This document shows, in pieces, positions 20,596-59,669 of a stretch of DNA of 64,000 nucleotides (the first letter of the stretch is position 1; the number at the start of each line of letters is the position of its first letter). Under the pieces are notes generated by a model. It was not told where the DNA came from and made no database searches. It worked only from the letters and a program-made list of their open reading frames with translations. The stretch lies in the NCBI GenBank assembly GCA_964016885.1, contig OZ024742.1, forward strand, positions 357,554,001-357,618,000, given 5' to 3'. A program made the translations under genes and the position numbers. The stretch is from Eledone cirrhosa. Lineage: Eukaryota.

Positions 20596-21441
20596 TATAG
20601 TAGAATAATCGAGTATCGAAAAATCGGCGCACGAGTTCACGATAAACAAAATTCGAGATGAGCGGCAGAGGGCTCGATAATTCAAATAAATCAGAGCTAT
20701 AACTATCGTTAAAATACCGTCACACGTAGAATATGTCTACAATCAACCAAACAACCGAAAAATTGCGATATGGAAGATTCGGGACACTCAGATAAATTAT
20801 CAATAAATCAATAAATCAAATGAATGTAAAAAGCATACCCGGACCCACTAGAGAGATGGTATATCTAGCTTCTTGGGTTTCTGTAAATCCTTAAACCGTC
20901 CTCTATCAGCTCACATAAAAATATAATACTTACAGACGACGGGGGACTGGAGTTACTTCTTCAACGAGCTTTAGTCCGAACGGATGAAAAGACAAAACCC
21001 AGGCTGAAAATACGCACATGGATTTCAGCAAGGGAGATAACCCTTATATCCGCAAAAAATATTCGGGAAAATGTGGAATAACACATATCGAATAAGAGTG
21101 CTCAATAGACATGTTAAAATAAACAGGAGCTATTCATCATTTAATAGAATCGATAAAAAATGAACAATAAAATTAACTGGTCAATAGCTAGGTCTAGAGC
21201 TAAGTATAGTAGAATAATCGAGTATCGAAAAATCGGCGCACGAGTTCACGATAAACAAAATTCGAGATGAGCGGCAGAGGGCTCCATAATTCAAATAAAT
21301 CAGAGCTATAACTATCGTTAAAATACCGTCACACGTAGAATATGTCTACAATCAACCAAACAACCGAAAAATTGCGATATGGAAGATTCGAGACACTCAG
21401 ATAAATTATCAATAAATCAATAAATCAAATGAATGTAAAAA
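20596..21441 (-). mobile_element. Retrozyme-like module, 609-bp unit, about 1.4 copies, in (TA)n
   Basis: 20596-20831 is repeated at +609. Non-coding; HHR at 20837-20969. Confidence 0.8.
20837..20969 (-). ncRNA. Type I hammerhead with long stems II and III
   Basis: Minus strand: GCTCG-TTGAAGA-A-GTAAcTCC...GGAtTTAC-A-GAAA-CCCA..CTAGA..TCTAG-TGGG-TC-CGGGT. Confidence 0.7.
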
Positions 21442-21476
21442 TATATATATATATATAGGTATATATATATATATAT

Positions 21477-21680
21477 GGCAACATTGAGGACCGAGTAAGT
21501 TAGATTACCGATATAAAAGACACAGAAGCGAGAAGCGAAAACCAACCAAACAGTGAGTGTGTTCTGTTATTAATTCTGGCAATATTACACAAATATGACC
21601 CTCCCCAAGTATAACAATATTTGTTTCGACAGACGATTTCATACAAAAAACCTCGCAAAACTAATTCATCGCCGCTATGG
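21477..21680 (+). mobile_element. 3'-terminal fragment of the PLE family at 53304-54688
   Basis: Near-identical to 54489-54688; flanked by (TA)n. Confidence 0.85.
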
Positions 21681-21725
21681 TATATATATATATATATATA
21701 TATATATATATAGAGAGAGAGAGAG

Positions 21726-22010
21726 ATAATTTAATATATCTACTAACATAAGCGCACAGATGTACGCTAATGCCAGCAAATACACAGGTTATGTCATAGT
21801 ACCTAGGTGGTTCAATGCAGGAGGATGCAGAACAATAATATAAAAGACGTAAAATAAGAAAATAAAAAAAATAAAAAAATAAAAAAAATTAACTTACTTA
21901 AATTTTCACTCCAACTAATTAGTTTCTGCAATGGGATAAAGACAGTTACGTAATGAACTGTTGAGAATTTCATTGCGTCATCAGGGAGATCTATTCTCAG
22001 CCAAGTCTCA
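21726..22010 (-). mobile_element. Partial copy of the 548-bp HHR module (38.5-40.6 kb family), with an internally deleted HHR
   Basis: Matches 38515-38788, including ctccaactaattagtttctgcaatg...cattgcgtcatcagggag. Confidence 0.85.
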
Positions 22011-22185
22011 TATATATATATATATAGGTATATATATATATATATATATATACCTATATATATATATATATACCTATATATATATATATATATATATATA
22101 TATATATATATATATATATATATATATATATATATATATATATATATATATATACCAATATATATATATATATATATATATATAT

Positions 22186-56935: not shown

Positions 56936-57475
56936 ATATATATATATATATATATATATATATATATATATATATATATATATATATATATATATATATA
57001 TATATACCTATATATATATACCTTTATATATATATACCTATATTTATATATATATATATATATATATATATATATATATATATATATATATATATATACC
57101 TATATATATATACACCTATATTTATATATATATACTTATATTTATATATATATATATATATTTATATATATATATATATTTTTATATATATATATATATA
57201 TATATATATATATATATATATATATATATATATATATATATATATATATACCTATATTATATGTATGTATATATATATATTTATGTATATATATGTATAT
57301 ATATATACCTATATTTATATGTATATATATATAACTATATCTATCTATCTATATATATATATATATATATATATATATATATATATATATATATATATGT
57401 GTGTGTGTATATATATATATATATATATATATATATATATTTATATACCTTTATGTATGTATATATATATATATA

Positions 57476-58428
57476 TTTAAAAGAATAGAGGTGTAACACA
57501 CAAGTTATGATATATTTGTAAACGGAATAGAAAATGCTGACAAATTGTTCACAGTGAAAAATAGTTTAATTATGAATAAGTGATAATTAGTAATAGTATT
57601 GGTTAGTATTAAGTTTTGGTTTTAAGTTTTACCGGTTGCGCATTTCTAATGCTTTTCAAAAATAATTTTGAGATAGAATGCCCGTGATGTTTGCTCTGAT
57701 CTGATTAGTTTTGGGAATTCTACCTGTTTTTATGTTAAAAAAGTGGCTCCAGCGTTATTAAAATAAGTTTTGCGCCAATTCGTGTTGCAAAAATTCTTGT
57801 GGTCAAAACAATTTTGATTGGTCGGTAGAGGTCATGTCAATGTAAAAAATTGATTTTGCGCCAAATGTAGGTTAGGTGTCGGCTGACTGAGAAATAAGTC
57901 TAACAAATATGTGTGTGTGTGTGTGTGTAGTAGTAGTAAAGAGGTTTGTTGTTGTGATAATGGTCAGCAGTGATGTGTGTGCGAACCGCAGCCTGTTGAC
58001 AGTTCAAATGCCTATTAAGACAAGTGTGTGTGTGTGTGTGTGTGTGTGTGTGTGTGTGTGTGTGTGTGTGTGTGTGTGTGTGTGTGTGTGGCAGAGTAAT
58101 TCGTGGTAGAGGGATGGTCAGTAGGAATGTATTTGTAAGTGTGTGGGGGATATTTTAACATGTTAAAAGATATTTGTTCAGTTCTTGTCTTATACGGAGA
58201 AGTGTGTGTGTGTGTGTGTGTGTGTATGTCTCTTTGTACGTTAATGTACGCGTGTGTATGTGTGTGTATATATATATGTGTGTGTGTGTGTGTGAGAGAA
58301 TGTGTGTGTGTGTGTGGGTGGATCAGTATTTATTTCTGTTAAAATGGTGTACATTATTCGATATTTTCAGTAAAATCGATTCTCTCAATAGAACATCAAA
58401 AAACCTTAATAATAAAAGGTGTGAAATG
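57476..58428 (-). mobile_element. 3'UTR/pLTR-only copy of a relative of the 41.1-kb Penelope
   Basis: Collinear with 41123-42150. Confidence 0.88.
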
Positions 58429-58557
58429 ATATATAGTATTGGCATAATACCAAGGCGTGTGTCAGTGTGTCCAGACCGCACGTACTCCAAGGGTGATCCA
58501 TTAGGCCTTGCCGTATTGGAATACCTGTGCACAAATATGTATCTGGAGTGTGTCCAG

Positions 58558-58663
58558 AAATTGTATACCCGTGCACAAATTGTATACCCGTGCACAAATT
58601 GTATACCCGTGCACAAATTGTATACCCGTGCACAAATTGTATACCTGTGCACAAATTGTACAC
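58558..58663. repeat. 19-bp tandem repeat (aaattgtatacccgtgcac) x about 5.5
   Basis: Direct periodicity, flanked by two copies of atgtatctggagtgt. Confidence 0.9.
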
Positions 58664-58813
58664 ATGTATCTGGAGTGTATATATATATATATATATATAT
58701 ATATATATATATATATATATATATATATATATTTATATACAGATATATATATATATATGCATATATATATATATATATATATATATACATATATATATAT
58801 ATATATATATATA

Positions 58814-59669
58814 TAGTAATATGAAATACGTCCTTTCACGCACAAGGCGCCAAGGTACGCATGTATTGTCCAACCAAGTGCCAGTGTGGTTCAATGGCGG
58901 GTTAATAAATTAACGAGCCAGAACAAATATAAACAAGGTTTAGTAAATAATGAAAAAGTTTCAAAAAAAATTTTAAAAAATTGACTTTACCTACTATAGT
59001 TACCTTTACCGATCGGTTTCGAATCCCAAAAATAAAACGTAGGCCATACGGCCTTCGTTGCAAAGAGAGATTCTCGTCAGAAGGTTCTTTTCATTCAAAG
59101 AATATAAAATTCCTGAATTTAAATCACAAACTAGCGCTATCAAAGACTGCTCCTGGGATGAGAGTGGATGATGTAGAACAGGTTTATCAAGGGCCGTAGT
59201 AAAGATAGAGGCAAAAGGAGGTAGGTCAAACTAGCCACCGCTGTTATCAGCAGCAGTCGGAATGACCCGGTTTGTTCTCAACGTTTGTGGAGGTAGTAGT
59301 AATATGAAATACGTCCTTTCACGCACAAGGCGCCAAGGTACGCATGTATTGTCCAACCAAGTGCCAGTGTGGTTCAATGGCGGGTTAATAAATTAACGAG
59401 CCAGAACAAATATAAACAAGGTTTAGTAAATAATGAAAAAGTTTCAAAATAAATTTTAAAAAATTGACTTTACCTACTATAGTTACCTTTACCGATCGGT
59501 TTCGAATCCCAAAAATAAAACGTAGGCCATACGGCCTTCGTTGCAAAGAGAGATTCTCGTCAGAAGGTTCTTTTCATTCAAAGAATATAAAATTCCTGAA
59601 TTTAAATCACAAACTAGCGCTATCAAAGACTGTTCCTGGGATGAGAGTGGATGATGTAGAACAGGTTTA
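58814..59669 (-). mobile_element. Retrozyme-like module, 483-bp unit, about 1.8 near-identical copies with two intact HHRs
   Basis: 58814-59186 is repeated at +483, with (TA)n on both sides. Confidence 0.92.
59002..59085 (-). ncRNA. Canonical type I hammerhead (second copy at 59485-59568)
   Basis: ACCTT-CTGACGA-GAATC..(AACG..AGGCC gtat GGCCT..CGTT)..GATTC-GAAA-CCG at CGG-TA-AAGGT. Confidence 0.9.

Follow-up and report, generated by a model that had tools for sequence, protein, structure and literature searches.

Background

The elements described here stand closest to the animal non-LTR (long terminal repeat) retrozymes. Cervera and de la Pena (2020) reported invertebrate retrozyme circles of 170-400 nt, proposed that such circles serve as templates for reverse transcription (RT) into tandem cDNA, and named Penelope-like elements (PLEs) as the likely mobiliser (PMC7229834). 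In the preprint of Li, Clavereau and Pollet (2026), units range from 51 to 972 bp and those of Xenopus originate from PLE pseudo-LTRs (pLTRs); PLE mobilisation is argued there from co-occurrence and pLTR kinship, the mechanism being still open according to its authors (10.64898/2026.07.22.740005). Here we describe non-coding, hammerhead-bearing tandem inserts found between positions 20596 and 59670 of a 64,000-nucleotide stretch of Eledone cirrhosa DNA (contig OZ024742.1, positions 357,554,001-357,618,000; the whole stretch is hereafter called the window), and their copies in the 3.0 Gb assembly. A literature search, with most subscription journals, supplements, Dfam and Repbase outside its scope, found no paper on cephalopod retrozymes or on the insertion footprint reported below in retrozymes. 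A squid genome paper gives 235 Hammerhead_1 matches, which its accessible text leaves unanalysed.

Judged by the sequence features tested, the units would belong to the animal non-LTR retrozymes and appear to work like non-autonomous PLE passengers. Shared with the former are tandem, non-coding units that each contain a single type I hammerhead, a G+C below 50%, a self-paired fold and PLEs alongside. Unit lengths also fall within the 51-972 bp of the preprint, so the larger size put forward as new in an initial annotation of this DNA is already published (10.64898/2026.07.22.740005). Unlike in those retrozymes, the hammerheads are mostly non-canonical, with stem II of up to about 80 nt, a mismatched first pair, U3-A8 cores and a long or palindromic stem III; and the inserts target (TA)n, have RT starts fixed at two sites and carry inverted arms, none of which is reported in the accessible text of the two retrozyme papers (PMC7229834; 10.64898/2026.07.22.740005). 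No parent pLTR was seen among the five PLE remnants of the window. Cleavage and circles have been demonstrated for animal non-LTR retrozymes and are predicted for the present units.

With endonuclease-bearing PLEs the inserts share 5′ truncation, tandem and head-to-head arms with a tail on one arm (PMC8557442, PMC3846280), AT-rich or (TA)n targets, and RT starts downstream of the hammerhead cut (PMC11167929); they differ in having no open reading frame (ORF), tails of 26-122 nt instead of the usual 30-40, and arms of many units (PMC8557442, PMC3846280). MRC1 of Chlamys is likewise a non-coding, PLE-moved element with pLTRs and multicopy head-to-tail insertions, but elements of its type resemble their autonomous partners at the 3′ end, a resemblance not found here, and its clade mostly lacks the canonical hammerhead, a motif of which is present in every unit of our set (PMC8557442). 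The minimal hammerheads of PLE pLTRs show the same U3-A8 covariation, palindromic helix III, irregular base of helix II and multiplicity of families per genome; those stand singly or flank coding PLEs, while the present ones lie in non-coding, self-propagating units, several with far longer stems (PMC4209133).

The best explanation, to which we assign a probability of roughly 0.6, is that the inserts represent non-coding hammerhead families moved in trans by PLEs, with F6- and F4-type arrays probably copied from circular RNA of unit length. Its parts are graded separately: that the inserts are PLE-mobilised retrozymes is highly probable, and a circle as the main template in F6 and F4 is moderately favoured.

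Non-coding tandem inserts and their hammerhead motifs

The window is AT-rich animal DNA dense in (TA)n runs. Self-comparison and reading of the sequence gave nine inserts (Table 1), in each of which an arm exceeds the unit length (1.1-2.7 units). Likeness between units was found only for F1a and F1b (68%), F3 and F3b (76%) and F5a and F5b (83-87%), and the inserts therefore fall into six families. The longest ATG frame per insert is 25-87 aa, and the RT and GIY-YIG ORF of an autonomous PLE is not in any unit; the units are non-coding. The initial annotation had listed nine non-coding inserts of these unit lengths, each of more than one unit, in six unrelated families, all of which is borne out by the self-comparison and by frames of at most 87 aa. 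Insert ends are permuted positions of the unit, not LTRs, and target duplication is not readable inside (TA)n. Unit G+C is 28-38%. Predicted as circles, all nine units fold more stably than shuffled sequences (z -2.6 to -15.1; 15 shuffles each), the value for F5b being inflated by its own TA palindrome; a tenth, unrelated window repeat gave z -0.6.

A type I hammerhead motif was found in each unit family from descriptor matches, conservation among copies and covariation of the core. Rfam, suggested earlier as a check, gave 273 window matches, the best 150 of which contained no hammerhead; separate scans of two inserts gave none either. A descriptor of our own, relaxed stepwise after the sequences had been seen, gave 16 matches in the window against 0.65 in 40 shuffles, and after further relaxation 21 against 0.83 (30 shuffles); the other check suggested, a relaxed descriptor admitting long stems and U3-A8, thus recovers motifs far above shuffles. 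Whole motifs number 13 in the window and form 10 groups, besides one half motif, so that the previous count of about 14 hammerhead families in 64 kb stands if subfamilies are counted apart. The claim of a type I hammerhead in each insert holds for the units, every one of which has the motif, and less well for the window copies, several of which have core changes: the F2 copy has GUU where GUC is usual, one F3 and one F5a copy are core-mutated, and the F1b copy has C3.A8 in place of the U3-A8 that prevails in this subfamily genome-wide.

The core of F6 is canonical, with stem II of 7 bp and stem III palindromic. In F2 and F4 the core is of the U3-A8 type, and U3.G8 is the family norm in F1a. 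The base of stem II is C.A in F3 and U.U in F5, and the subfamilies differ by compensatory changes, which were seen in stems between F3 and F3b, F5a and F5b, and F1a and F1b. The F1 motif fits only with a stem II of 78 nt and was recognised only via genomic relatives; a first reading of the F1 core (CUGAUAGA near 20909; CUGAUGA near 27462) was dropped in favour of the long stem II, as its stems do not form.

Hammerhead cores are well conserved among genomic copies. In a set of 31 motif families over 242 sequences, which takes in coding-PLE ends and a few chance matches (shuffles gave 3-8), the 3-8 pair is C-G in 16 families, U-A in 8, U.G in 3, C.A in 2 and another in 2 (Fisher p 0.0013). Core covariation and compensatory stem changes point to selection on the ribozyme, whose activity is predicted.

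Some further motifs were observed. Loci L001-L241 (0.9 Mb, overlapping) hold the 31 motif families, some by chance; the base of stem II is the canonical G-C in only 7 of these and C.A, A.A or U.U in 13, and stem III is palindromic in 12. Two fold-back stubs (32011-32195 and 49763-49956) belong to another hammerhead family and retain only the 3′ half of its motif, which is complete in locus L129. An orphan U3-A8 motif lies at 8534-8578 (+), outside 20596..59669.

Insertion footprint shared with Penelope-like elements

Searching the genome with each unit gave 728-4,243 first-look candidates, which are not copy numbers, and the best 37-40 candidates per family, matched to a window copy, were scored. 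A pattern search with F6 stem III yielded in addition a non-coding 487-bp sister family with 99 matches. Arrays have variable 5′ ends and fixed 3′ ends in (TA)n: among 3′ ends of seven subfamilies, 232 of 260 have at least 8 alternating TA within the next 25 nt. The earlier placing of the inserts in (TA)n needs a correction in the window, where the left ends of F4 and F5a lie outside it.

Two alternative 3′ ends are used, at unit positions 372 and 480 in F6, 390 and 512 in F3, 411 and 526 in F3b, 477 and 562 in F2, and 37 and 63 in F4; those of F5a, mostly 285 and 345, are less regular than in other families. Rather than at the predicted cut, the paired ends lie 61-278 nt downstream of it, at a spacing of 26-122 nt. 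When two arms meet head to head, one carries the short end and the other the long end. This was so in 76 of 76 pairs with both ends classifiable (F2, F3, F3b, F4 and F6, with F5a, as the less regular family, and F5b left out), with no short-short and no long-long pair; the other 10 of 86 head-to-head pairs had one non-standard end. An inverted partner, described earlier as frequent, is present in the window for F2, F3, F3b, F4 and F5a and lacking for F1a, F5b and F6. F1a and F1b have a single 3′ end in 52 of 53 cases and no inverted pair.

Coding PLEs of this genome use two ends likewise, 55 nt apart in PLE-D, 40 in PLE-A and about 63 in PLE-B. The PLE tail is described as sitting on one arm (PMC8557442; PMC3846280), and work with a purified PLE in vitro showed that it extends from one internal RT start to the other, both lying downstream of the hammerhead, the enzyme cutting and extending both target strands (PMC11167929). 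Since the two-end footprint equals that of the coding PLEs and the published tail, the units were very likely inserted by PLE proteins. The proposal that the retrozymes are mobilised in trans by a PLE is thus supported, although the support does not extend to a neighbouring PLE as the mobiliser: no sequence link was found between the window PLEs and any unit, and their co-location is therefore best explained by a shared (TA)n target. Because the F1 subfamilies have one end and no inverted arms, their mobilisation by another PLE, or in another mode, is likely.

The best candidate for the enzyme donor is PLE-D (23,923 first-look candidates), genomic copies of which have natural open RT and endonuclease frames; its mixed junctions with F4, F5 and the F6 sister are suggestive only. 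Its frames exceed 900 aa, with a long Asn-rich insert upstream of the RT (window 53325-54688; L236-L241).

Junctions nearly devoid of TA, joining the fixed 3′ end of one family to a 5′-truncated copy of another, were observed for F5/PLE-D, PLE-D-like/F1a, F4/PLE-D, F6-like/F6 sister, F6 sister/PLE-D and PLE-A-like/F1b (window 53303-53324; L034:2373/2374; L117:1170-1172 and 2286; L247; L250; L193:2756). They suggest template switching on a shared enzyme, the alternative being chance insertion at the edge of a TA run.

RNA template of the arrays

Arrays with at least two whole units were found genome-wide for all six families. In the window, only the F6 and F3 inserts have two or more complete motifs on the same strand of which at least two are intact, as a monomer requires.

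F6, the youngest family, bears on the template. Its 31 arrays represent 15 haplotypes, each array having a single one throughout its units and mostly in both arms, which is what rolling-circle RT predicts. At seven segregating sites, only 3 of 214 array-by-site cells were mixed, against 106 expected (minimum 92; 2,000 permutations), and a minor allele was common to both arms in 25 of 28 comparisons. Units of one arm differ by 0.16%, the two arms by 0.23% and separate arrays by 0.71%, and 130 of 131 pieces are exact across the predicted cut. The remaining variants are nearly all confined to a single unit, from which it follows that the units of an array arose together; two are partly shared, and arrays of 4-9 units are star-like. 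Repeated copying of one circular unit would explain the F6 arrays most simply. F4 arrays are mostly homogeneous as well. Variants of F6 that had seemed private to an array proved mostly to be family-wide haplotype markers once the 31 arrays were compared, and A-to-I editing, considered for three recurrent A>G sites in F6, was rejected, array-wide A>G and T>C changes being equal (20 and 20) over six families.

Indirect support for self-cleavage in vivo at the predicted sites comes from the 5′ ends, 41 of 310 of which lie 0-25 nt past the predicted cut, an interval picked after the lists were seen, against 17.8 expected and 20 in either flanking interval; the excess is driven by F4 (15/70), F1a (8/39) and F6 (7/55). 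Starting internally on a cut monomer, RT could copy no more than 61-278 nt, so that whole units would need RNA that is ligated or uncut.

Several points speak against PLE-driven copying of self-cleaved, circular RNA. The excess of 5′ ends, besides depending on an interval chosen afterwards, is absent in F3, F5a and F1b, and stalling of RT at stem I would give a similar one. In one young F5b insertion, two types of unit alternate along both arms, which requires a template of two units or more; later changes are shared among its internal units. Longer F4, F3 and F1a arrays have higher-order patterns, which means that arrays also grow after insertion, and divergence within arrays is not clearly lower than between arrays in F1a, F3, F4 and F5a. 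The purified PLE, the only one assayed in vitro, did not need ribozyme cleavage and used uncut RNA as its main substrate (PMC11167929), minimal PLE-type hammerheads cleave poorly (PMC4209133), and 8 of 9 Xenopus retrozymes gave no cleavage in vitro (10.64898/2026.07.22.740005). The scored copies, being the best matches to a window copy, are biased to young and long ones, and comparison of the units with the ends of the five window PLE remnants found no resemblance.

Some of these points would be expected if the inserts were derived from PLEs as non-autonomous elements, templated by linear read-through transcripts of tandem loci that stay uncut, with arrays that later grow and homogenise by unequal exchange, the hammerhead trimming ends or being a passenger and no circle being needed. 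The dimeric template and later duplication in F5b, the higher-order repeats and the use of uncut RNA in vitro (PMC11167929) are of this kind, as are the local amplification proposed in the 2026 preprint (10.64898/2026.07.22.740005) and the origin of 33 of the 41 near-cut 5′ ends from arms of more than one unit, a result expected of linear multimers that are cut in part. Such a route does not readily account for star-like F6 arrays of 4-9 units in which only two variants are partly shared, nor for 15 array-fixed haplotypes, which would need repeated single-unit bottlenecks followed by expansion at 0.16% divergence, nor for hammerhead cores that covary across families. We regard it as unlikely to be the whole explanation and yet as a serious rival; both routes may operate.

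A further observation concerns F4: locus L272 (G000:C1:293635299-293643479) holds an array of 26 units in which a block of six is duplicated as a higher-order repeat, an instance of a retrozyme becoming a local satellite.

Independence from coding elements

In the top-scoring loci, all units form pure head-to-tail arrays, dispersed over many contigs with differing flanks and reaching about 9 units in F6 and 26 in F4. No shared upstream coding sequence was found in 30 F1a loci picked with a short 3′ query, and no linked ORF or shared upstream coding sequence in 30 of the 99 F6-sister loci, which were picked by pattern. PLE protein matches near arrays are neighbours or isolated junctions. Pure arrays, no shared coding sequence upstream and no match to PLE ends together imply that the unit itself propagates; the data support self-propagating units rather than mere 3′ ends of coding PLEs, although some unit may have a rare coding parent.

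These results bear on the possibility, raised as a refutation in the initial annotation, that the inserts are always truncated 3′ ends (pLTRs) of coding PLEs located elsewhere in the genome. Their footprint and hammerhead styles are indeed those of coding PLEs, PLE-C in the window is a remnant of just this kind, and only the best 37-40 of the 728-4,243 candidates per family were scored. Exact head-to-tail arrays of so many units with no coding part, and the 30 F1a and 30 F6-sister loci, make this improbable as the sole explanation. Least probable of all is movement by a long interspersed nuclear element (LINE) or spread as satellite DNA: the window has RTE-like copies and LINE RT and endonuclease fragments, and some arrays are long, but two internal starts, one per arm, in head-to-head arrangement are those of PLEs in this genome and in the literature, and the copies are dispersed across many contigs with different flanks.

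Proposed mechanism

Replication of the retrozymes in trans by a PLE would proceed in five steps. An array would be transcribed by read-through. The RNA would cleave itself at successive hammerheads, as their structure predicts, and the monomers could be ligated by a host RtcB-type ligase, as suggested by work on other retrozymes (PMC7229834). The PLE RT and GIY-YIG protein would then nick both strands of a (TA)n target and start RT inside the RNA at two fixed sites; the two ends and the use of one per arm are observed, and the enzymology is taken from the purified PLE (PMC11167929). RT would circle the template for up to about 9 units with variable stops, the arrays being observed and the circle presumed. 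Finally, both cDNAs would join head to head, giving the junctions observed.

On a broader and more tentative view, which we put slightly short of even odds, the genome would hold dozens of independent families of viroid-like circular RNAs, copied by a dimeric Penelope enzyme through rolling-circle, target-primed RT with two internal starts per molecule, one for each DNA strand.

Other features of the window

Features are listed in Table 1. The segment of PLE-C is a coding PLE remnant and no retrozyme. The junction of the F5-like stub with PLE-D is possibly a mixed two-arm insertion.

Table 1. Retrozyme inserts and Penelope-like elements in the window
Feature	Position	Strand	Unit (bp)	Description
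F1a insert	20596..21441	-	609	1.39 units; single fixed 3′ end in (TA)n; no inverted arm; 5′ end 9 nt past predicted cut
F1a hammerhead motif	20837..20969	-		U3.G8 core, 78-nt stem II (A.A first pair), long stem III, GUC; cut predicted between 20842 and 20841
Short F3 piece	21713..22009	-		one hammerhead motif, 21909-21988
F1b insert	26916..27635	-	605	1.19 units; hammerhead motif 27143-27278
PLE-B	27745..31633	-		broken coding PLE: RT pieces, GIY-YIG, inverted end; minimal U3-A8 hammerheads 27814-27853 and 31460-31495
PLE-C	34248..36573	.		5′-truncated coding remnant between identical 904-bp inverted repeats; GIY-YIG-like C-terminus 35124-35438 (no match given by Pfam); hammerhead motifs 34288-34404 (-) and 36417-36533 (+)
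F2 insert	37399..38067	-	562-564	1.19 x 562 bp; U3-A8 hammerhead 37650-37786, 8-bp stem I; inverted arm 38284-38379, separated by intervening repeat
F3 two-armed insert	38498..40571	.	548-549	1.11 units (-, long end) head-to-head with 2.71 units (+, short end); hammerheads 38688-38767, 39344-39423, 39893-39972 (core change), 40438-40517
PLE-A	41115..46617	-		coding PLE; open 784-aa RT and GIY-YIG frame 42360-44714; second frame upstream, 455 aa, 44645-46012; pLTRs with hammerhead-like motif, GCAA replacing GAAA
F4 insert	48615..49108	.	316	two-armed; U3-A8 hammerhead 48929-48972 (+), GUC
F5a insert	51631..53092	.	about 430	two-armed; minimal hammerheads 52045-52087 (-) and 52783-52825 (+, core change), U.U first pair, palindromic stem III
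F5-like stub	53303..53324	-		22 nt, inverted, 21/22 match to F5 short end, joined to PLE-D
PLE-D	53325..54688	+		5′-truncated copy of very abundant coding PLE family
F5b insert	54712..55564	+	539	1.6 units, internal (TA)n; hammerhead 55118-55162
F3b insert	55916..56938	.	526	two-armed; hammerheads 55968-56048 (-), 56687-56767 (+)
F6 insert	58814..59670	-	483	1.77 units; intact canonical-core hammerheads 59002-59085 and 59485-59568, cuts predicted between 59007 and 59006 and between 59490 and 59489

A protein search with PLE-A found relatives at 41-59%. Its 455-aa and RT frames overlap at 44645-44714 (-) at a U-UUU-UUA heptamer, where a -1 shift joins both, and PLE-B carries the identical heptamer at 31159-31165 (-); PLE ORF1 can be split off by frameshift (PMC8557442). 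Non-coding ends of PLE-D and a relative, one of them a near-perfect 599-bp palindrome, lie at 36727-37393, 40593-40939 and 21477-21680, and a frameshifted fifth PLE-type RT fragment lies at 59746-60842 (+) beside the F6 insert.

Two further repeats lie in or between TA runs. An insert in (TA)n at 50634-51238 and 25653-25729, with direct-repeat spacing of roughly 530 bp, has CUGAUGA; the descriptors found no hammerhead in it, and its folding is not unusual (z -0.6). A repeated non-coding insert between TA runs at 49240-49643 has relatives beside L027 and in L236, and a hammerhead was not found. A 48-bp minisatellite of 57 copies, with several open frames above 450 aa, occupies 582-3318.

Implications

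Retrozymes themselves are a known kind of element. What these sequences appear to add is genomic evidence on mobilisation by PLEs and on a circular template, both only proposed before. Within one genome, the same quantitative rule of insertion holds for retrozymes and for coding PLEs, and the very young F6 family keeps a haplotype structure that bears on the template. A large hammerhead population is missed by Rfam models in the inserts scanned. The route can be tested in vitro with reagents ready for use: a 483-nt unit, whose RT starts are mapped, and PLE frames in which the RT and endonuclease domains are open. If the rolling-circle view is true, the arrays are a genomic record of circular RNA as a template of retrotransposition, and the tandem arrangement of pLTRs in Penelope elements themselves may be due to this route.

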